Assembly: GCA_045544995.1 (NCBI GenBank)
Contig: JAZQAE010000119.1
Span: forward strand, 1,857-65,856
Direction: 5' to 3'
Source of the DNA: Eubacteriales bacterium
GTDB taxonomy: Bacteria > Bacillota > Clostridia > Oscillospirales > QAKW01
DNA: 64,000 nucleotides
Shown here: in pieces, positions 5,994 through 31,739 of the stretch
Layout: every line of letters starts with the position of its first letter
Numbering within the stretch: position 1 is the first letter of the stretch
The notes under the pieces: generated by a model
Seen by the model: only the letters and a program-made list of their open reading frames with translations
Database searches by the model: none
What the model was told of the DNA's origin: nothing
Made by a program: the position numbers and the translations under genes

Positions 5994-8138
5994 ATGGAAA
6001 AATATACGTTTGCAACGACAGACGAAAATGACGTTTCTGTAAAATTAGGAGATTATTATAACCAAGTTCATGCTAAGCATATCGATGCTTATGGCCAACT
6101 TGGAGCAGATAACATTGTTGAAAACATCGTAGAAACATACAGACAAATTCAGATGCAAATGAGCGCAGATAACAAGAATAATAATGTTTTGCTTGTTGGT
6201 AAGGTTCAATCTGGTAAAACCTCTAATCTAGAGATGCTCACAGCATTGGCTTTTGATAATGGCTATAATATTTTGGTTATTTATGGCGGCTACGACACTA
6301 GTTTGTTAAAACAAACCACAGACAGATTTAAAGAAACCTTTGATGTTACTGGCGAAGTGACTTATGACGATGAAGGCCCCGCTATATTTACAACAGATGA
6401 TAGCACTCAGATTTTAAGCATAGATGATGAAATAATGACCGATCTTTTGGAGAATAACAAACCTGTTATTTTTGTATCTATGAAACGTCCAGTGGCTATG
6501 CGAAAAATCAACGCTTTGTTCAAGCGTCTTGACAAATCAGAATTTAAAGCTTTTATCATTGATGATGAGGGCGATCAGGCTAGTTTAAATACAGCCAAAG
6601 ACAAAAAAGAGAATGCTTCCGCAACCTACAAAGAAATTGTTGAGATGAAGAATTTGCTTGAAGATCCGATGTATCTTTCGGTTACTGCCACACCACAAGC
6701 CAATATTTTCTTGGATGAATGGAGTGCTTTACGCCCGGATTCTATTCGTCTAATTCAGCCAGGAAAAGGATATGACGGCGCAGAGGTGTACCACTTATAT
6801 GAGAATGATATTGTAACTTTGGTGTCAGAAGAGGATCATGCGGAATTAGCAGATGGAAAAATACCTGAATCTCTTTGGGAGGCTGTACGTTACTTCATCG
6901 TAGCAAGTGCTATTAAATGTAAGCGTGCCACAAAAACAAAAGAGCGCTTCAGCGATATGATCGTGCATGCGTTTCGTGAGGTGTTGCAACATAGTAGCAT
7001 CTATACCTCTATAGAAAGTTATATCGATTGCCTGAAGAACTCCTTTGAGTATGAGGATGACGATATGGAGGGCTATTTGCTAGAATTTGAAAATTGTTTC
7101 AACAAGTATGTCTCTGATGAAATTAAGTCATCCTTTACTTTTGAGGAGATTAAATCCGAAGTCATCACCGTTGTCAGAAAAACCAAAGTCATATTAAAAA
7201 ACGGAATTGGTAAAACAACCCAAGGCAACGAAAAACTCAAGTGGCATAAAATTTATATTGGCGGAGATTTGTTACAAAGAGGATTGACGTTTTCTAATTT
7301 GATAACTACTTATTTCACTCGCTGGGCTACTGGCGGTGGAAATATGGACACGAATTTGCAACGAGCTCGTTGGTTTGGATATCGTAGTAAATACATCGAT
7401 ATTTGTAAAATTTTCACCACTTCCGAAATAGCTCAAGAATTCACTAATCTTGCAGAAATCGAGGATGACTTGTGGGATCAATTTGCAGATGTTGAGAATG
7501 GTGTGTTAGCAATTGACGATATTCTTATTCAGTCCGAAAAAACCAAGCAAAGTCCCACTAGCAAACAGCGCGTAAACTATGAGAAAGTATCTTTTAAGAA
7601 TCGTTGGTTAAAACAAAGATTCTTGGTAACTGACGAAAACAAAATTGCTGAAAACGACAATAGAATTAAGGCTTTAATAGATTCAGTACAGTGGGAACCT
7701 ACAACTGCCGGAAGTAAAATAGGTGCGAAAACAGCTCAATACGCCTATTTTGATTCCAAGACATTGAAGGATCTTATCAACGTAATTTATGGCGTGTTTG
7801 ATTATGAACCTTTCCAAAAGAAGGCTCTAACAGATCTTTTAGGCCAAGATAACATTCCCGTTATTTTAATGGGCGCTGATAAAGAGCCGCGTAAGCGTAG
7901 TATTTATAAGGCGGACTTTAGAATTAAAGCATTACTTCAAGGTGCCGATTCTACAATCTCCGAAAAAGTAACATACGTTGGTGATAGTGGTGTAGTAATC
8001 GATAAAGATTGTATAAACATTCAAATACACAGGGTTTTACCTCGTGAAGACAAAACAACTGTGATGAAAGAAAAAGAACAATATATGTTTGCAATCTATA
8101 TACCAAAAGAAAAAACATATTTTGTAAAGGGGAACTAG
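5994..8138 (+). CDS. Z1-domain P-loop/helicase-like ATPase
   Basis: Walker A GKVQSGKTSN, Walker B IIDDEGDQAS, SVTATP, and an arginine-finger-like QRARWFGYR. Confidence 0.85.
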   Translation: MEKYTFATTDENDVSVKLGDYYNQVHAKHIDAYGQLGADNIVENIVETYRQIQMQMSADNKNNNVLLVGKVQSGKTSNLEMLTALAFDNGYNILVIYGGYDTSLLKQTTDRFKETFDVTGEVTYDDEGPAIFTTDDSTQILSIDDEIMTDLLENNKPVIFVSMKRPVAMRKINALFKRLDKSEFKAFIIDDEGDQASLNTAKDKKENASATYKEIVEMKNLLEDPMYLSVTATPQANIFLDEWSALRPDSIRLIQPGKGYDGAEVYHLYENDIVTLVSEEDHAELADGKIPESLWEAVRYFIVASAIKCKRATKTKERFSDMIVHAFREVLQHSSIYTSIESYIDCLKNSFEYEDDDMEGYLLEFENCFNKYVSDEIKSSFTFEEIKSEVITVVRKTKVILKNGIGKTTQGNEKLKWHKIYIGGDLLQRGLTFSNLITTYFTRWATGGGNMDTNLQRARWFGYRSKYIDICKIFTTSEIAQEFTNLAEIEDDLWDQFADVENGVLAIDDILIQSEKTKQSPTSKQRVNYEKVSFKNRWLKQRFLVTDENKIAENDNRIKALIDSVQWEPTTAGSKIGAKTAQYAYFDSKTLKDLINVIYGVFDYEPFQKKALTDLLGQDNIPVILMGADKEPRKRSIYKADFRIKALLQGADSTISEKVTYVGDSGVVIDKDCINIQIHRVLPREDKTTVMKEKEQYMFAIYIPKEKTYFVKGN

Positions 8139-16336: not shown

Positions 16337-17293
16337 ATGGCAAAACGAGTATGCTGTTTGTACCGCGTGTCCACCGGCAAACAGGTGGACTACAACGGCA
16401 ACAACGAAGCCGATATCCCGATGCAACGCAAAGCGTGCCACAAATTCGCGCTGGAAAAGGGCTGGAACATCGTGCACGAGGAACAGGAGGACGGTGTTTC
16501 AGGTCATAAGATTCGCGCCGAAAACCTCGATAAAATCCAAATCATCAAGGAACTGGCACGCAAGAAACAATTCGATATTCTGCTGGTGTTTATGTTCGAC
16601 CGTATCGGCAGAATCGCGGACGAAACACCCTTTGTGGTGGAATGGTTTGTCAAAAACGGCGTGGAGGTATGGAGTACCCAAGAGGGCGAGCAACGGTTCG
16701 ACAACCACACCGACAAGCTCTTAAACTATATCCGCTTTTGGCAAGCGGACGGCGAGAGCGAGAAAACCTCGGTGCGTACCAAAACGAGCTTGGGTCAGAT
16801 TGTGGAGTCGGGTCACTACAAGGGCGGCGGTGCCGCCTATGGCTACGACCTTGTGAAAAACGGGCGCACCAATAAGAAAAAGCACGAACTCTTTGACCTG
16901 CAAGTGAATGCCGATTACAGCAAGGCGAGTGATAACCTCGCCTTGCTCAAAGCCGAGGTGGTGAAATCCATTCGGGGTGAGGGTTCCTTTTCTACCGAGA
17001 TGCTGTCGGATCTCATTCGCGAAGCGGAGAGCGAATGTGCGCATTTGGAGGAACAATGCGACGATGCAAGGCGGGACGTGAAAGACACCGAAAATCTGCT
17101 CCGTCAGCTCAGCGACCATTTCGACGAATTGATCTCTTGGGCGGAACTGTACGACAGCGCCAGCTTGGAGAAAAAGAAGATGGTGGTCAACGCCCTCATT
17201 AACCGCATTGAGGTGTTCCGCGATTATAAAGTTAAGATTGATTTTAATTTTGACTTTGAGCAATTTACGCAAGGCTTAGACATCGCAGCATAA
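16337..17293 (+). CDS. large serine recombinase with an apparent in-frame internal deletion (probably inactive)
   Basis: The resolvase catalytic domain is intact (YRVSTGKQ, DGVSG, FDRIGR). After YGYDLV the sequence jumps straight to the C-terminal coiled-coil. No recombinase or zinc-ribbon domain is visible. Length is 318 aa versus the roughly 500+ aa usual for this family. Confidence 0.7.
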   Translation: MAKRVCCLYRVSTGKQVDYNGNNEADIPMQRKACHKFALEKGWNIVHEEQEDGVSGHKIRAENLDKIQIIKELARKKQFDILLVFMFDRIGRIADETPFVVEWFVKNGVEVWSTQEGEQRFDNHTDKLLNYIRFWQADGESEKTSVRTKTSLGQIVESGHYKGGGAAYGYDLVKNGRTNKKKHELFDLQVNADYSKASDNLALLKAEVVKSIRGEGSFSTEMLSDLIREAESECAHLEEQCDDARRDVKDTENLLRQLSDHFDELISWAELYDSASLEKKKMVVNALINRIEVFRDYKVKIDFNFDFEQFTQGLDIAA

Positions 17294-17345: not shown

Positions 17346-17897
17346 TTATTTCATTCTCTTTACAAAGTGGAACATTTCGTCGGGGCCTTCGTTCGGGTCG
17401 TGTTCTTCGTCGTCCGGCATTGAGTGCGAAGATTGAAAATGCTCGCACCAAAACTCGTCGATTTGGAAGCCGCATTTATTGACGTAGAAATGGATATTTC
17501 GTTTTTCAAAATACGGGGTGCAGGTTTCCCACACTTCCGTTTCGGGGTGGAGGGCTTCCACTGCCTGCCACGCACCGTAGCCGATGCCTTTGGTGTGCTC
17601 TTCGGGAGAAACGAACAGGATTTCCAGTTCGTTGTGGTGGGTCTCGTTATTGATTTTGAGAATCACACCGCCGACCTTTCTTCCGTCCAACATAATGCGG
17701 TAGGTCTCGTTGTGGGGATCGTCGATACAATGCTTGATGGTTCTGCGGGAAATGATCTCGCCGTCATCGTCGATATGGTCGTCCCGTTCGCCGAATTCTT
17801 CCAGCGCACCATACTTAAACGACCATTGATTATCGAGGATAAACTGCTCCCGATCGTCGGCAGTCAAGGGAACAAGGGTAACCTTTGTATTTTTCAT
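17346..17897 (-). CDS. GNAT-family N-acetyltransferase
   Basis: About 183 aa. Block ELEILFVSPEEHTKGIGYGAWQ (Q/RxxGxG/A-like). RBS aggaggtac. Confidence 0.8.
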   Translation of the reverse strand: MKNTKVTLVPLTADDREQFILDNQWSFKYGALEEFGERDDHIDDDGEIISRRTIKHCIDDPHNETYRIMLDGRKVGGVILKINNETHHNELEILFVSPEEHTKGIGYGAWQAVEALHPETEVWETCTPYFEKRNIHFYVNKCGFQIDEFWCEHFQSSHSMPDDEEHDPNEGPDEMFHFVKRMK

Positions 17898-18056: not shown

Positions 18057-18737
18057 TTATTGGTTTTCGCTCTGGCGCACTTTCATTTTTTGCCAGCTGA
18101 GATAGCCGTAGATATCGTTGACCAAAAAGGCAACAAAGCACACGACAACCGAGATATAGCGAGTGTCAGACACGCTCGCCAACACCCACAAAACAATCAA
18201 CACCACGTCGTTGGAAGCGTAGGCAAGGGCAAAGAGAGGACTTCTGCGGAAAGTGAGATAGACAGCGACAAAGCTTGTGGTAACGGAAAGGGTGCTGGGG
18301 AGGATATTGGCGGTATGGAAATGCGCCAAGATGAAATAAAACACAGCGGTAACAAGGGTGGTGCCGACCCACATCCATACCGTTTCCGCTTTGCTGATGG
18401 TGTTAACCTTAACCTCCGCTTTGTTGCCCTTATAGGGATTGCGGAGCCACGAGATGAGGGCAAAGACCGCCATCGGCATAGTCATGCCGAGATAGGTGAT
18501 CATTTCTCCGTAATAAGCAAAGCTATAGGAAATGATGCCATACAGCAAGCTGAACACCACCATCAGCACTTGCCCGAAAGGGTTTCCTTTGGCATTAAAG
18601 ATCAGCGAGGTAACGCCGATGAGAGAGGCGATCAAGGTCAGAATGTTTTCACGGTCAAAAAGGCAAAAGGAGCCCACGATCAACAAGACAGACGAAGACC
18701 ATAACGTAATTTCTAATTTTGAAAAATAGTGTTTCAA
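18057..18737 (-). CDS. pnuC: PnuC-family (nicotinamide riboside-type) transporter, copy 1
   Basis: LIFNAKGNPFGQ, YGEMITYLGMTMPMA and WLRNPY are PnuC hallmarks. TTG start 7 nt after ggagg, homologous to the copy-2 start. Confidence 0.85.
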   Translation of the reverse strand: MKHYFSKLEITLWSSSVLLIVGSFCLFDRENILTLIASLIGVTSLIFNAKGNPFGQVLMVVFSLLYGIISYSFAYYGEMITYLGMTMPMAVFALISWLRNPYKGNKAEVKVNTISKAETVWMWVGTTLVTAVFYFILAHFHTANILPSTLSVTTSFVAVYLTFRRSPLFALAYASNDVVLIVLWVLASVSDTRYISVVVCFVAFLVNDIYGYLSWQKMKVRQSENQ

Positions 18738-18749
18738 GGCAAGTCCTCC

Positions 18750-18835
18750 AAAAAAATAAGCATCCGTACACACGTCTTCAAAGACCTAACGACGTGCAAA
18801 CGAATGCATTAGCATTTCACTACCCGGTGGCAGTT
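18750..18835 (-). promoter_or_regulatory. conserved structured leader (terminator/antiterminator) upstream of pnuC copy 1
   Basis: About 87% identical by eye to 30963-31048. Long hairpin plus U-run, with a competing small hairpin aatgc/gcatt. The cacGtc/gaCgtg versus cacAtc/gaTgtg change is compensatory. Confidence 0.6.
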
Positions 18836-18863
18836 TTAACGATATTTAGTATGTCTAACCGCT

Positions 18864-18892
18864 ATTATAACGGCAAATATCTAAAATGTCAA
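18864..18892 (-). promoter_or_regulatory. consensus sigma-A promoter for the pnuC-1 leader
   Basis: Minus strand: TTGACA, 17-nt spacer, TATAAT. Confidence 0.6.
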
Positions 18893-18931: not shown

Positions 18932-19078
18932 TTATTTATCTTTTAAAAAACATCCAATTACAGCAATAACTACACCTACAAAAGCGCAGCCTACAGCAAT
19001 TGGATGAGCATTGGGTTGCATCGTAATGCCCAACAGTCCCATACAAATTCCTACGAATGCTATTTTAATACCTCTCAC
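18932..19078 (-). CDS. 48-aa hydrophobic peptide (two predicted TM segments), not in the ORF track
   Basis: GTG start 9 nt after aaggag. Translation: VRGIKIAFVGICMGLLGITMQPNAHPIAVGCAFVGVVIAVIGCFLKDK. Bracketed by a riboswitch and a terminator. Confidence 0.4.
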   Translation of the reverse strand: MRGIKIAFVGICMGLLGITMQPNAHPIAVGCAFVGVVIAVIGCFLKDK

Positions 19079-19141
19079 AATAAATCGCTCCTTTCAAATA
19101 TTATAAGGGTACAGAATTATCTGCACCCAATTTTCAGTTGT

Positions 19142-19288
19142 AAAAAAACATGAGGCACCCCATAGGGAATGCCTCATGTACAAAATCCTTGTATATGACT
19201 TCCTACGACGGCATTATCCGCATCAGGTTAAAGGGTCAAAGTTTGATTACTTTCTCTCAGCCTGCAAATACAAACTCCCCCGTGTTTA
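19142..19288 (-). promoter_or_regulatory. TPP (THI-box) riboswitch with a terminator expression platform
   Basis: Minus strand reads cacgggggag...ggctgagag...accctttaacctgatgcggataatgccgtcgtaggaag, which is the TPP aptamer consensus. It is followed by a 9-10-bp hairpin (19148-19179) and a T7 run. Confidence 0.85.
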
Positions 19289-19447
19289 TTTTATTAATTA
19301 TAATACACTTTTTTTCAATAATTGCATGTGCTTCTGATAACGGTTAGATATACTCTTATTTATTGAATTAATAATGCAACAAAAATAATCATATCGGTTG
19401 ATAGTTTATGCATGCATTTAGATATCTGTACGCTTGAATAGTACTTT

Positions 19448-19876
19448 TTATAAACTGTATTGTCTTATTGCATTTACAATACTGTTAGTATCCCAATTAA
19501 CCATCTTATCAGCCACACGCATGACTTCAACAGGCATAATTTGAGCACCGCGTGGTTTTATTGCAATGATGGGCTTCCCCATTTGTTTTGCTAGATTAAT
19601 TTCACACTGCATCCATTTTCGATAATTGGTATACATTCCGGAAATAACCAAAACGCAACTACAAGGTTGGATTTTTCGTTCTATTGCAGCTTTAATTTGA
19701 TATGCAGAATTAACATCGGTTGCATCAAGATTATGTAATGGCTTATCTTTTGGTGCTGAATAGTTACAGTAACTAAAGTTATTGGCTAAATCTAAAAGAT
19801 TAATCAGGCGACTATATTCATCGCCATACTTCCATGCATGGCTTATAAAAATATTGTATTGTCTTAAATATGGCAT
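19448..19876 (-). CDS. TIR-like domain protein (DUF1863/ThsB-like)
   Basis: The N-terminal YNIFISHAWKYGDEY and a conserved Glu in WMQCEINLA fit a stand-alone bacterial TIR. Confidence 0.7.
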   Translation of the reverse strand: MPYLRQYNIFISHAWKYGDEYSRLINLLDLANNFSYCNYSAPKDKPLHNLDATDVNSAYQIKAAIERKIQPCSCVLVISGMYTNYRKWMQCEINLAKQMGKPIIAIKPRGAQIMPVEVMRVADKMVNWDTNSIVNAIRQYSL

Positions 19877-19880
19877 ATAA

Positions 19881-20306
19881 TTACTCCTTTTTTATATATT
19901 CTTTTTGGTTAAGGCTTTTCCACGAATTGCGTTCGGATTCCATAATACTTTCACAGTTAATTATAAATGCATCCATAGAAGCATCTTTATATCTATCCGC
20001 AGAACTTAAAAACAAAACCTTTTCCTTTTTCAGTTTTTCATACGTGTCCCGATAATTGATCCAAGTTTCCTTGGTTTTCCTTAATAATTGTAAGCTTGAT
20101 AATATGGAGGCAGCTGCACTCATTGTAGCAATAATGTATTTTAGAAACCCAGAAGTATCAAGTCCGATTGATAAAACGGGAATAATTGCATTAAAAACAA
20201 TCATTATACTTGACAAAATATAATATTCTCGACGAAGCCTGACTGATTTGTTGTGATAATAATCCATTTGTTTTTCGAGTCGCTCTTTGATGTAATCAAA
20301 TTCCAT
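19881..20306 (-). CDS. SLATT/DUF4231-like two-TM protein
   Basis: N-terminal helix, then two TM helices (YYILSSIMIVFNAIIPVLSI, YIIATMSAAASILSSL), then a WINYRDTYEKLKKE tail. A consensus promoter inside the longer tracked ORF supports the 20306 start. Confidence 0.6.
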   Translation of the reverse strand: MEFDYIKERLEKQMDYYHNKSVRLRREYYILSSIMIVFNAIIPVLSIGLDTSGFLKYIIATMSAAASILSSLQLLRKTKETWINYRDTYEKLKKEKVLFLSSADRYKDASMDAFIINCESIMESERNSWKSLNQKEYIKKE

Positions 20307-20322
20307 TAAATCACCCTTTATA

Positions 20323-20351
20323 ATTGTACAACATACAGTGGCGATTGTCAA
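20323..20351 (-). promoter_or_regulatory. sigma-A promoter for the SLATT-TIR pair
   Basis: Minus strand: TTGACA, 17-nt spacer, TACAAT. Confidence 0.55.
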
Positions 20352-20474
20352 CGAGAAACACAACATATCGTGATTTTTATTATCTCGACAAAGATGGGCT
20401 CAATTCTTTTAGTGTTAACGTTTCTACGGTAAAATGAAAATAGTTTTTATGTGCAGTAGCATTGATTAGTTAAG

Positions 20475-20676: not shown

Positions 20677-20752
<76 letters not shown>

Positions 20753-29620: not shown

Positions 29621-30460
29621 ATGAGTAGCATAGAAGCGTTATTGATCACCACAGCAATTGCAGGGGTTGTGGGAACCGGGCTCGGCGGTTTGATCGGTGC
29701 TCTGCTCCAAAAAGAGTCCAACCGTACCGTCAGCCTGTTGCTGAGTTTTGCGGCCGGGGTGATGCTGAGTGTGGTCTGTTTTGACCTTGTGGTGGAAGCA
29801 ATCGAAACCAATACCGGTATCTTTACCGTAATTTTATCCATTGCATTGGGCGTTGCGGTTACCTTTTTACTGAATTATATCATTGACCGCAAGACGGCTC
29901 CTGAAATCGAGCATCTCGATGAAAACCATCCCAAGACCGCTGACCATCTAAATGAATTGATCCATAGCGACCATTGGGAGCATCACGCAGGAAAAAATGA
30001 TACGAAGCTTTCCCTCTTTGTGGCCGGTATCGTAATGGCTTGCGCTATCGCCCTTCATAACGTGCCGGAGGGAATGACCATCGGTGCCTCTTATGCGGTG
30101 GAAGACGTGGTGTTTGGAGGAGCATCTCTTGTGTTGGCAATTCTCATTGGTTTACATAATATCCCGGAAGGAATGGCAGTCTCTGTGCCCCTTATCACCG
30201 GAGGAATGAAGAAGACCAAAGCCGTCTTGATTACAGCCTCCACCGGCATCCCCACCATCTTGGGTGCCTTGTTTGGCTTTTGGCTCGGTGAGATCGGACC
30301 TTTGGGTCTGACGCTTAGTTTGGGATTCGCCAGCGGTGCTATGCTCTACGTGGTGTTCGGTGAGATCTTACCGCAGTCGATCTTGATGTATCATAGCAAA
30401 GCCCCTGCTTTTTCGGCCATCGTGGGAATGTTGGTTGGCTTGCTGATCATCTTTGTGTGA
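29621..30460 (+). CDS. ZIP-family divalent metal transporter (ZupT-like)
   Basis: Repeated HNVPEGM / HNIPEGMAV motifs. Multi-TM. His-rich loop. Confidence 0.85.
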   Translation: MSSIEALLITTAIAGVVGTGLGGLIGALLQKESNRTVSLLLSFAAGVMLSVVCFDLVVEAIETNTGIFTVILSIALGVAVTFLLNYIIDRKTAPEIEHLDENHPKTADHLNELIHSDHWEHHAGKNDTKLSLFVAGIVMACAIALHNVPEGMTIGASYAVEDVVFGGASLVLAILIGLHNIPEGMAVSVPLITGGMKKTKAVLITASTGIPTILGALFGFWLGEIGPLGLTLSLGFASGAMLYVVFGEILPQSILMYHSKAPAFSAIVGMLVGLLIIFV

Positions 30461-30476
30461 TTTCGAGGGTTTGAAT

Positions 30477-30953
30477 ATGTTCAGAGAAGTTGCCAGAAAA
30501 AAGCAAAGCTTGGATCGGCCTCGGATCATTGAGATTCTGAAGCAGGAAAAACGAGGTGTTTTGTCGGTCCACGGGGAAGACGGTTATCCTTACGGGTTGC
30601 CGATCAATTATTGGTATAACGAAGAAAATGGCTATCTTTATTTCCACAGTGGAAAAACCGGTCATAAGGTCGATGCGATCCATGCAGATCATAAAGTTTC
30701 CTTCTGTGTCTATGATGAAGGCTTCAGAAGAGACGGAGAATGGGCGTTAAATATCAGCAGTGTGGTAGTTTTCGGAAAGATGTACCCGGTAGAAGATACG
30801 GAAAAGGCAACGGAGATCTTCCGTCGCCTGAGTCTGAAGTTTACCTCGGATCTGGACTATATTGAGGGGGAAATAAAGCAATTTGCTAAAGCTACGCTTT
30901 GCTATGAGCTTCGTCCCGATCATATCACGGGAAAGATCGTGAATGAATCATAA
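30477..30953 (+). CDS. pyridoxamine 5'-phosphate oxidase-family (FMN-binding split barrel) protein
   Basis: GVLSVHGEDGYPYGLPINY...YFHSGKTGHK pattern. Confidence 0.8.
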   Translation: MFREVARKKQSLDRPRIIEILKQEKRGVLSVHGEDGYPYGLPINYWYNEENGYLYFHSGKTGHKVDAIHADHKVSFCVYDEGFRRDGEWALNISSVVVFGKMYPVEDTEKATEIFRRLSLKFTSDLDYIEGEIKQFAKATLCYELRPDHITGKIVNES

Positions 30954-30962
30954 AAAATAATG

Positions 30963-31048
30963 AACTGCCACCGGGTAGTGTAATGCAAAAAGCATTCGTT
31001 TACACATCGTTAGGTCTTTGAAGATGTGTATGCGGATGCTTCTTTTTT
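30963..31048 (+). promoter_or_regulatory. conserved structured leader (terminator/antiterminator) upstream of pnuC copy 2
   Basis: Small hairpin ctgcc/ggtag. Hairpin aatgc(30982-6)/gcatt(30992-6) competes with a long terminator stem gcattcg+tacacatc / gatgtgta+cggatgc, followed by ttcttttt. Confidence 0.6.
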
Positions 31049-31061
31049 AGGAGGAATGAAG

Positions 31062-31739
31062 GTGAAATACTATTTTTCAAAATTGGAGATCATGTTATGG
31101 AGCTCGTCCGTAGGGGTGATCCTTTTGTCTTTTTGCATTTTTGACAGAGAAAACTATCTCACGTTAACCGCATCGCTCATTGGGGTGACGTCGCTGATTT
31201 TTAATGCAAAAGGCAATCCTTTTGGTCAATTATTAATGGTCGTGTTCAGTGTGCTGTATGGCGTGATCTCCTATACCTTTTCCTATTACGGGGAAATGAT
31301 TACCTATCTGGGCATGACCATGCCGATGGCGATCTTGGCATTGATCTCTTGGCTGAGAAATCCCTATGATGGGAATAAAGCGGAAGTCAAGGTTAATACC
31401 ATCGGTAAGAGGGAGACGGGATGGATGTGGATCCTTACCGTGGGAGTGACGCTCCTCTTTTACTTTATTTTAGCCCATTTCAATACCGCCAACCTTATTC
31501 CAAGCACCCTCTCGGTTACGACCAGTTTTCTTGCAGTGTATCTGACTTTTCGCAGAAGCCCCTATTTTGCATTGGCTTATGCGGCGAACGACGTTGTTTT
31601 GATCGTCTTATGGGTCCTCGCCAGTGCGACGAATATGCGATATCTTTCCGTTGTGGTCTGTTTTGTGGCATTCCTTTTTAATGATATTTACGGATATGTC
31701 AGTTGGCAGAAGATGAAAAATCGGCAGAATAAAAAATAG
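31062..31739 (+). CDS. pnuC: PnuC-family transporter, copy 2
   Basis: About 73% aa identity by eye to copy 1. GTG start 7 nt after aggagg. Confidence 0.85.
   Translation: MKYYFSKLEIMLWSSSVGVILLSFCIFDRENYLTLTASLIGVTSLIFNAKGNPFGQLLMVVFSVLYGVISYTFSYYGEMITYLGMTMPMAILALISWLRNPYDGNKAEVKVNTIGKRETGWMWILTVGVTLLFYFILAHFNTANLIPSTLSVTTSFLAVYLTFRRSPYFALAYAANDVVLIVLWVLASATNMRYLSVVVCFVAFLFNDIYGYVSWQKMKNRQNKK

Follow-up and report, generated by a model that had tools for sequence, protein, structure and literature searches.

Two leaders in the window (the whole 64,000-nt stretch of DNA that we analysed), each located just before a gene for a PnuC-like transporter, are very probably guanidine-IV riboswitches, which are transcriptional ON switches with a split aptamer. 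Copy 1 runs from 18837 to 18750 on the minus strand and copy 2 runs from 30961 to 31048 on the plus strand; each is 88 nt long. The guanidine-IV class was validated in 2020 (Salvail et al. 2020, mepA motif; Lenkeit et al. 2020, GGAM-1; PMC7736828; bioRxiv 10.1101/2020.10.21.349134). As far as sequence analysis reaches, membership in this family is established by sequence, structure, covariation, and regulon. Guanidine binding, the ON-switch logic, and the kissing loop would carry over by analogy from published experiments on other members. The original prediction was that these leaders are unclassified riboswitches. We agree that they are cis-acting riboswitches which act via an intrinsic terminator, but they are ordinary members of an already known class and are not new.

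When the two leaders are aligned, 76 of 89 columns are identical (85%), while the two pnuC coding sequences are 73% identical at the DNA level (47% at third-codon positions). The encoded proteins are 80–81% identical. In the 100 nt that flank each leader-gene unit, on either side, identity is 41–45%, and the conservation of the leader begins abruptly at AACUGCC. So the leader is better conserved than the coding sequence, as had been estimated by eye (about 87% versus about 70%). The leader of copy 1 (18837 to 18750, minus strand) reads AAAACUGCCACCGGGUAGUGAAAUGCUAAUGCAUUCGUUUGCACGUCGUUAGGUCUUUGAAGACGUGUGUACGGAUGCUUAUUUUUUU and is followed by GGAGG and by the TTG start codon of the PnuC-family gene. 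Both leaders fold into a small 5' hairpin (P1) and a long terminator hairpin, and their folding energies are better than those of shuffled sequences (z = -2.5 and -4.1). Copy 1 has a linker of 11 nt and copy 2 has one of 12 nt; over 182 instances of the motif, linker length ranges from 3 to 27 nt. The features of the two leaders and the genes that they precede are as follows.

18864–18892, minus strand: putative promoter of copy 1, with -35 box TTGACA (18892–18887), a 17-nt spacer, and -10 box TATAAT (18869–18864); 12/12 match to the consensus.
18819–18834, minus strand: P1 hairpin of copy 1, ACUGCC-ACCG-GGUAGU, with loop ACCG at 18828–18825; predicted 5' half of the split guanidine aptamer (from the homologue alignment and covariation).
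18803–18816, minus strand: linker hairpin of copy 1, AAUGC (18816–18812), loop UAAU, GCAUU (18807–18803); supported by covariation, with a putative role.
18760–18807, minus strand: terminator hairpin of copy 1, with base GCAUUCG/CGGAUGC, upper stem UGCACGUC/GACGUGUG, and a 14-nt apical loop (minimum free energy and centroid folds).
18777–18790, minus strand: conserved apical loop of copy 1, GUUAGGUCUUUGAA; predicted 3' half of the split aptamer (from loop conservation and validated members).
18750–18759, minus strand: U-run of the intrinsic terminator of copy 1, UUAUUUUUUU; homologues also have a U-run.
18749–18745, minus strand: Shine-Dalgarno sequence GGAGG of copy 1, directly after the U-run.
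18057–18737, minus strand: PnuC-like transporter gene 1, the regulated gene, 226 amino acids, TTG start (PF04973, E = 1.5e-33; TIGR01528).
30964–30979, plus strand: P1 hairpin of copy 2, ACUGCC-ACCG-GGUAGU, with its loop at 30970–30973 (covariance model, 107.9 bits).
30982–30996, plus strand: linker hairpin of copy 2, AAUGC (30982–30986), loop AAAAA, GCAUU (30992–30996).
30992–31039, plus strand: terminator hairpin of copy 2, with the conserved apical loop GUUAGGUCUUUGAA at 31009–31022.
31040–31048, plus strand: U-run of copy 2, with GGAGG at 31050–31054.
31062–31739, plus strand: PnuC-like transporter gene 2, 225 amino acids, GTG start (PF04973, E about 1e-33; TIGR01528).

These features bear out the structure that was originally described. 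The hairpins CUGCC-ACCG-GGUAG, AAUGC/GCAUU (with a variable loop), and GCAUUCG/CGGAUGC (the base of the long hairpin) are all present and covary in homologues. Also present are the compensatory change between the copies (CACGUC/GACGUG versus CACAUC/GAUGUG), the U-run and then the Shine-Dalgarno sequence in both leaders, and the perfect promoter (TTGACA-17-TATAAT) at 18864–18892. For copy 2, we did not find any promoter-like site of its own; it begins 10 nt past the stop codon of a NimA-like gene.

To find homologues, we used a protein-guided scan with one genome per species. This gave 80 orthologues of the PnuC-like proteins (73–88% identical), all from metagenome-assembled genomes of Clostridia (Acutalibacteraceae, Oscillospiraceae, Lachnospiraceae, Christensenellales, and others). 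We built a covariance model (R1) from the leaders and used it on the window and on the 80 orthologous loci. Across the 64 kb of the window, the two copies scored 103 and 108 bits and all other matches were at or below 24 bits, so we found no further copies before other genes in the window; the two highest of the weak matches were to the opposite strand of the copies themselves. In 80 of 80 orthologous loci, R1 identified exactly one copy directly 5' of pnuC, although two of these were cut by contig ends. As the original prediction anticipated for a real element, the motif lies upstream of other pnuC genes in Clostridia, and a larger alignment (78 sequences) shows covariation that supports P1 and the terminator.

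In that alignment, which was fitted to the model, P1 and the terminator are 98.8% paired and 10 pairs have double-sided changes. The terminator helix alone is 98.6% paired, with double-sided changes in 8 of its 16 pairs. The covariation score was reached by none of 500 shuffles, and it collapses if the partners are slid by 1–3 columns. The loop-closing pair of P1 covaries (C-G in 48 of the 78 homologues and U-A in 29). Among the same homologues, the P1 loop ACCG and the adjacent pairs are invariant, and so are UUAGGUC, G, and A within the terminator's apical loop of 14 nt (GUUAGGUCUUWGAA). Such invariant loops would be unnecessary in an ordinary terminator. Furthermore, ACC of the P1 loop is complementary to GGU of the terminator loop in both copies; this complementarity is invariant, with both loops fixed by the search pattern, and as the pattern held ACC and GGU constant, the loop-loop pairing lies outside the covariation test.

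The genes downstream of the motif link it to guanidine. A search of metagenome contigs for CTGCYACCGRGYAG-N20-40-TCRTTAGGTCNNNGANG, a pattern that combines the invariant segments, yielded at least 120 loci. The downstream genes were mostly PnuC-like, but the motif also precedes MATE efflux pumps (six loci), SugE/SMR proteins (two loci), NimA-like proteins of the PNPOx family (four loci), GNAT acetyltransferases (two loci), and small EamA-like membrane proteins (two loci). At the non-PnuC loci, the stems differ and the two loops are unchanged. Except for the EamA-like genes, this set of genes is the published set of guanidine-IV associations. The genes downstream of GGAM-1 are SugE (31%), PnuC-like (25.2%), MATE (22.6%), NimA (10.5%), B3/B4 (5%), and GNAT (2.5%), so PnuC-like is the second most common (PMC7736828). 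Lenkeit et al. discussed the PnuC-class genes as possible new guanidine exporters (PMC7736828).

One published locus can be matched directly. We compared 12 contig names with the accessible part of the published table of GGAM-1 loci and found one match, AUXO018711526.1. On this contig, our motif lies at 6444–6504 (minus strand), and the accessible part of the table lists GGAM-1 env-1490 at 6522–6417 (minus strand), followed by NMN_transporter. The leader at this locus scores 87.7 bits with R2, our model of the ON state, and is a close homologue of the leaders in the window.

The loops themselves are those of experimentally validated guanidine-IV members, which precede mepA (MATE) and sugE genes. 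We aligned ten sequences, including the window copies and validated members. The segment GCCACCGGGUAG from the P1 region of copy 1 is unchanged in the validated Clostridium botulinum riboswitch. Homologues of the window copies have both GCCACCGGGUAG (12/12) and UUAGGUCUUAG (11/11) in common with C. botulinum riboG; in place of UUAGGUCUUAG, the two copies in the window carry UUAGGUCUUUG. The L. lactis sequence (147 Lla) shares CCACCGGG and UAGGUCU..G.AGA with the window family. Side by side, the corresponding segments are UUGCCACCGGGUAGC and CCUUUAGGUCUUAGUAGG in the C. botulinum mepA riboswitch (a construct for smFRET), CUCCACCGGGAG and UCAGUAGGUCUGAGAAGA in the L. lactis sugE construct, and CUGCCACCGGGUAGU and UCGUUAGGUCUUUGAAGA in the window copies.

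Mutations in the L. lactis riboswitch show which of these nucleotides matter. G66C, U67A, and G72C abolish the response to guanidine, and G62C greatly diminishes it, although the G62C construct also folds unlike the wild type. The equivalents of G62, G66, U67, and G72 are G18790, G18785, U18784, and G18779 in copy 1 and positions 31009, 31014, 31015, and 31020 in copy 2. All four are present in both copies and are invariant or nearly so in the 78 homologues. A sequence-only nhmmer profile of the window family also recovers the validated members: the L. lactis sequence scored 25.2 bits and the C. botulinum sequence scored 12.7 bits, while the best of 400 shuffles scored 3.4 bits. Overall, the window copies and their homologues resemble guanidine-IV in their P1 with the CC-ACCG-GG loop, their variable linker, the apical loop UAGGUCU..G.AG on the terminator, their location upstream of PnuC-like, MATE, SugE, NimA, and GNAT genes, and their occurrence in Firmicutes/Clostridia. 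None of the defining features of guanidine-IV differ in the window copies.

We also considered that the leaders might belong to a new, unclassified class that senses the cargo or product of PnuC (nicotinamide riboside, NMN, NAD+, thiamine, or a nucleoside) and represses an importer by termination. In favor of this reading, the annotation of the downstream genes is nicotinamide riboside transporter PnuC, a TPP riboswitch stands 350 nt upstream of copy 1, and there is no match in Rfam. However, the motif is also found before genes that are unrelated to NAD or thiamine (MATE, SugE, NimA-like, GNAT, and EamA-like); its loops exactly match those of RNAs shown by experiment to bind guanidine; and the PnuC-like proteins are only distant relatives of the characterised nicotinamide riboside transporter. 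The TPP riboswitch (RF00059; 19183–19291, minus strand) is a separate element upstream of another ORF, with its own terminators, and does not overlap the leader. When we searched the 80 orthologous loci with a simple two-box TPP pattern, none had such a neighbour upstream of pnuC; the sole match was on the opposite strand and over 1 kb from the pnuC-like gene. Given that it has no counterpart at these loci, we treat the thiamine link via the adjacent TPP riboswitch as coincidental. A new class is very unlikely. The ligands that the original prediction implied (NAD+, nicotinamide riboside, and thiamine) are not supported: both the regulon and the nucleotides of the loops indicate guanidine, and the element would act as an ON switch and not through feedback repression by a vitamin.

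The lack of a match in Rfam 15 turned out to be misleading. At the gathering score, the whole window gave only tRNAs, the one TPP riboswitch (elsewhere), and hairpin noise. At E ≤ 10, neither leader matched any riboswitch family; the only matches were noise from miRNA- or sRNA-like hairpins. (At one homologous locus, a second element between the riboswitch and pnuC was also unmatched in Rfam 15 at E ≤ 10.) This agrees with the original view that the leaders are not TPP, FMN, preQ1, ZTP, or NAD+-II (the streptococcal pnuC motif). But Rfam had also been put forward as the test for novelty, and for this purpose the absence of a match was a false negative: our copy of Rfam evidently has no model for the class. 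Loops identical to validated ones should have been picked up by any model of the class, so the negative apparently reflects a missing guanidine-IV model and not a difference in the RNA. We dropped it as evidence of novelty once the literature matched the motif to guanidine-IV. More broadly, a clean negative from Rfam 15 does not imply a new structured leader, as at least one class validated in 2020 is apparently not covered; here the class was identified via a regulon-based search and not by Rfam.

Three other known riboswitches share some feature with the leaders. We take the HMP-PP (thiS motif) family to be part of Rfam 15, and neither leader matched it at E ≤ 10. Like the HMP-PP riboswitch (PMC6478431), the leaders have aptamer nucleotides inside the hairpin of an intrinsic terminator, but the ligand and the regulon are different. 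This terminator-embedded architecture made both the HMP-PP and guanidine-IV classes easy to overlook. NAD+-II (RF03013; PMC7749635) is also found upstream of pnuC-annotated genes. Its structure includes an internal bulge and a pseudoknot that involves the ribosome-binding site, and it is proposed to block the initiation of translation (PMC7749635; PMC8632094); the window element differs in its conserved nucleotides and is a predicted ON switch based on a terminator. We rejected NAD+-II because the architecture differs and there was no match to RF03013 at either the gathering score or E ≤ 10. Finally, guanidine-II (mini-ykkC) also has a pair of hairpins, with a proposed kissing contact of their loops that encloses guanidinium, and the tetraloop-like ACCG resembles its ACGR. 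Unlike guanidine-II, the window element lacks conserved ACG trimers, which Lenkeit et al. also noted for the GGAM-1 class (PMC7736828); its second loop has 14 nt and lies on the terminator; and it has no match in Rfam.

Targets of ANTAR proteins have two small hairpins, the second of which overlaps a terminator. The leaders look superficially similar, so we asked if they could be attenuators whose conserved loops are read by a trans-acting RNA-binding protein (ANTAR-, PyrR-, or BglG-like). We ruled out a dual-hairpin target of the ANTAR type, as the loops do not fit: they are not A..G.. hexaloops, and the loop of the second small hairpin varies in both length and sequence. More generally, the element is found across several families of Clostridia, and guanidine-IV is published as occurring in six phyla. 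No regulator gene recurs in the flanks of the motif, where the neighbours differ among loci. And guanidine alone is enough to elicit a response from purified RNAs of the class. A protein-dependent attenuator seems extremely unlikely, and we favor guanidine-IV riboswitches that sense their ligand directly.

If the leaders are guanidine-IV riboswitches, then the PnuC-like proteins are presumably transporters of guanidine (or a derivative of guanidine) and not importers of nicotinamide riboside. The product of gene 1 is only a distant match to PnuC from N. mucosa (4QTN; E = 2e-14). Within the literature we searched, we did not find any report beyond the 2020 papers on a Clostridia pnuC riboswitch candidate, or on the substrate or characterisation of the guanidine-associated PnuC-like transporters. 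For annotation, we suggest labelling both leaders as guanidine-IV riboswitches, and flagging the two genes named "nicotinamide riboside transporter PnuC" as putatively guanidine-induced PnuC-like genes, with substrate unproven.

Proteins of the PnuC family normally carry larger organic cations than guanidine: the cargoes of PnuC, PnuT, and PnuX are nicotinamide riboside, thiamine, and riboflavin. The PnuC-associated members of the motif are also a tight sequence subgroup with their own linker hairpin. So the PnuC subgroup might be a specificity variant of guanidine-IV that binds another small cation or a substituted guanidine (methylguanidine, aminoguanidine, or agmatine), which would be the cargo of the PnuC-like protein. 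There would be a parallel in ykkC subtype-2 of guanidine-I, and in the published work the L. lactis RNA binds methyl- and aminoguanidine as well. However, known specificity switches in other riboswitch classes are changes in the binding core, while the conserved loop nucleotides of validated members are all unchanged in the PnuC subgroup, and in our set the MATE-, SugE-, NimA-, and GNAT-associated copies have the same loops as the PnuC-associated copies. We consider a change of specificity to be unlikely, and guanidine remains our preferred ligand.

Gene families from the published regulon adjoin both copies in the window:

30453–30953, plus strand: NimA-like gene of the pyridoxamine-5'-phosphate-oxidase family, which ends 10 nt before copy 2 (PF12900, E = 1e-18).
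17346–17897, minus strand: GNAT acetyltransferase gene, 160 nt downstream of pnuC gene 1 (PF00583).

The NimA family is published as associated with guanidine-IV; here, the NimA-like gene is upstream of the riboswitch. Orthologues of this gene are in the same position at two of the orthologous loci. At another three loci, the arrangement is riboswitch-NimA-riboswitch-PnuC, with two copies of the riboswitch, and two further loci hold the NimA gene of this arrangement. The GNAT gene next to pnuC gene 1 also belongs to a family published as guanidine-IV-associated, and it might be co-regulated with pnuC. At one orthologous locus, a GNAT orthologue (80% identical) lies directly upstream of the riboswitch-pnuC unit.

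How would the switch work? Members of the class from C. botulinum, L. lactis, and R. timonensis were shown to bind guanidine, with a KD of about 60–250 µM. In published members, guanidine protects the P1 loop and the terminator loop, and it raises read-through in vitro and reporter expression in vivo. Its effect requires that the lower stem of the terminator has not yet formed, which is proposed to reflect a competition between the loop-loop contact and the full stem for the length of the linker. By analogy, we propose that the P1 loop (CC-ACCG-GG) and the apical loop of the terminator (GUUAGGUCUUUGAA) jointly form the guanidinium site via a kissing contact. Without guanidine, the 7+1+8-bp hairpin would zip to its base beside the U-run, and transcription would terminate before the PnuC-like gene. 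With guanidine, the ACCG loop would dock with the GGUC loop while the RNA is still nascent, ahead of the formation of the terminator base. The docked loops would keep the base open, and RNA polymerase would read into the transporter gene. The 5' strand of the terminator base might instead pair with the linker (AAUGC/GCAUU), which would hold the anti-terminated state. The terminator of copy 2 probably also ends the upstream ZIP-NimA transcript; if so, then pnuC gene 2 would be a guanidine-gated extension of that operon.

For the C. botulinum member, a minimum linker of about 7–8 nt has been discussed. The 11–12 nt linkers in the window exceed this minimum, and therefore the published, purely steric model may not transfer to them unchanged. 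In the accessible portions of the guanidine-IV publications, the linker is treated as single-stranded and the class is said not to rely on overlapping sequences (PMC7736828; bioRxiv 10.1101/2020.10.21.349134). The PnuC-associated subgroup differs from guanidine-IV as described in those portions: its 11–12-nt linker pairs as a 5–7-bp hairpin. We view this linker hairpin as a candidate antiterminator. The original prediction was that the base of the long hairpin overlaps the 3' arm of the small hairpin. An overlap with a small hairpin is real, and the shared strand is GCAUU: in both copies, it is the 3' arm of the AAUGC/GCAUU linker hairpin and also the 5' strand of the terminator base GCAUUCG/CGGAUGC.

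Several lines of evidence point to a conserved linker hairpin. Among the homologues from genomes, 74 of 78 have a linker hairpin of 5–7 bp, with matched changes across all three strands: ACAUU always occurs with AAUGU and ...GU, and GCAUC always occurs with GAUGC. To keep the flanking positions free of selection for pairing, we used the constant AUG/CAU core as the anchor of the pairing test. If the shared nucleotide is A then its partner is U (13/13), and if the shared nucleotide is C then its partner is G (14/14). For the two variable pairs of the linker, Fisher's exact test gives p = 1e-7 and p = 5e-12, uncorrected for phylogeny. When we aligned 90 distinct metagenome sequences to the ON-state model R2, 5 of 5 linker pairs had double-sided changes and 94% of cells were paired, in an alignment that was fitted to R2. 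Compared to shuffled linkers, 75% of the 182 instances fold better (p ≤ 0.05).

The hairpin is not universal. At least 5 bp can form in 83% of the PnuC-associated copies; it is also frequent before NimA and GNAT genes and is found in most of the MATE examples. It is absent where P1 is long (9–10 bp) and the linker is only 3–6 nt. Of the validated members, the one from C. botulinum has no comparable linker hairpin, while the one from L. lactis has AUCGU-AUGA-ACGAU.

A covarying linker hairpin that overlaps the base of the terminator may be a refinement of the guanidine-IV class, and potentially new to its descriptions. Tentatively, and at somewhat less than even odds, we suggest that most of the PnuC-associated linkers, along with several of the NimA-, GNAT-, and MATE-associated ones, form a conventional, covarying antiterminator of 5–7 bp with the 5' strand of the terminator base. 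If this is true, it would contradict the published claim that the class can do without overlapping sequences, and would account for switching in members with long linkers (11–12 nt). And many members of the family would combine the loop-loop, steric mechanism with ordinary competition between strands.

The guanidine-IV (mepA/GGAM-1) motif comes in two architectural types, with five of the loci that carry it outside the window (L098, L107, L114, L133 and L147) set apart from most PnuC loci. In the short-P1 type, the first hairpin (P1) has 5–6 bp and is followed by a linker of 9–13 nt, and a linker hairpin, which pairs the linker with the 5' strand of the terminator base, is present. In the long-P1 type, P1 has 9–10 bp, the linker is 3–6 nt, and there is no linker hairpin; UAGGAAA, the sequence that extends P1, is found again in the upper terminator stem, on its 3' strand. 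No family in Rfam release 15 matches RNAs whose loops are identical to those of experimentally validated guanidine-IV riboswitches, and the class seems to be absent from the library as searched. Findings elsewhere in our scan that rest on Rfam negatives may therefore suffer from the same gap.

Two copies of the motif precede genes for 141-aa EamA-like membrane proteins:

L119 7155-7240, motif copy before an EamA-like gene
L175 963-1030 of the reverse complement (reverse strand), motif copy before an EamA-like gene

The six top gene associations published for guanidine-IV (PMC7736828) do not include EamA-like genes. Both copies lack a U-run terminator, and the start codon comes no more than about 30 nt downstream of the second hairpin's 3' arm. 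The two may be translational, not transcriptional, variants.

Three loci each carry a pair of guanidine-IV copies about 610 nt apart. The first riboswitch precedes a NimA-like gene, and the second stands between that gene and a PnuC-like gene:

L145 2678-3375, L148 527-1224 and L176 4337-5034, minus strand, double guanidine-IV arrangement

By contrast, L114 has only one riboswitch, ahead of NimA-PnuC. Another locus has an extra element:

L073 2784-3000, additional element of about 110 nt between the guanidine-IV riboswitch and pnuC

This element contains a nested hairpin (GUCCGUGCG...CGCACAUGGAC) as well as a second terminator-like hairpin and its U-run; a search of Rfam at E ≤ 10 gave no match to it. 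In five loci (L107, L108, L120, L152 and L180), the riboswitch copies are identical to one another, and downstream there is only an ORF of 43–56 aa, whose beginning resembles that of a PnuC-like protein (MSNPIKSLTKKEW...) but which is cut short. A pnuC-like gene has probably decayed here while its riboswitch was retained.

Within the window, a TPP riboswitch unit (18932-19291) lies next to guanidine-IV copy 1, which precedes the PnuC-like transporter gene pnuC-1; putative defence genes and a recombinase are also nearby:

19183-19291, minus strand, TPP riboswitch (63.5 bits)
19179-19148, minus strand, its own terminator
19078-18932, minus strand, 48-aa hydrophobic ORF
18921-18901, minus strand, second terminator, after the ORF
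within 19448-20366, minus strand, SLATT-domain gene (161 aa, DUF4231/SLATT_1)
within 19448-20366, minus strand, adjoining TIR-domain gene (142 aa, resembling Thoeris ThsB)
20680-20752, tRNA gene
16337-17293, plus strand, serine recombinase (Resolvase N-terminal domain), adjoining the GNAT/pnuC-1 unit

It is unusual for a TPP riboswitch to have a tiny membrane peptide as its sole cargo. The 48-aa ORF has no Pfam or NCBIfam matches; it may be what is left of a thiamine transporter gene. The SLATT and TIR genes, which lie between the TPP unit and the tRNA gene, look like a small anti-phage defence pair. Together, the serine recombinase, tRNA genes and defence genes point to the stretch around the GNAT/pnuC-1 unit as a possible mobile or variable island.
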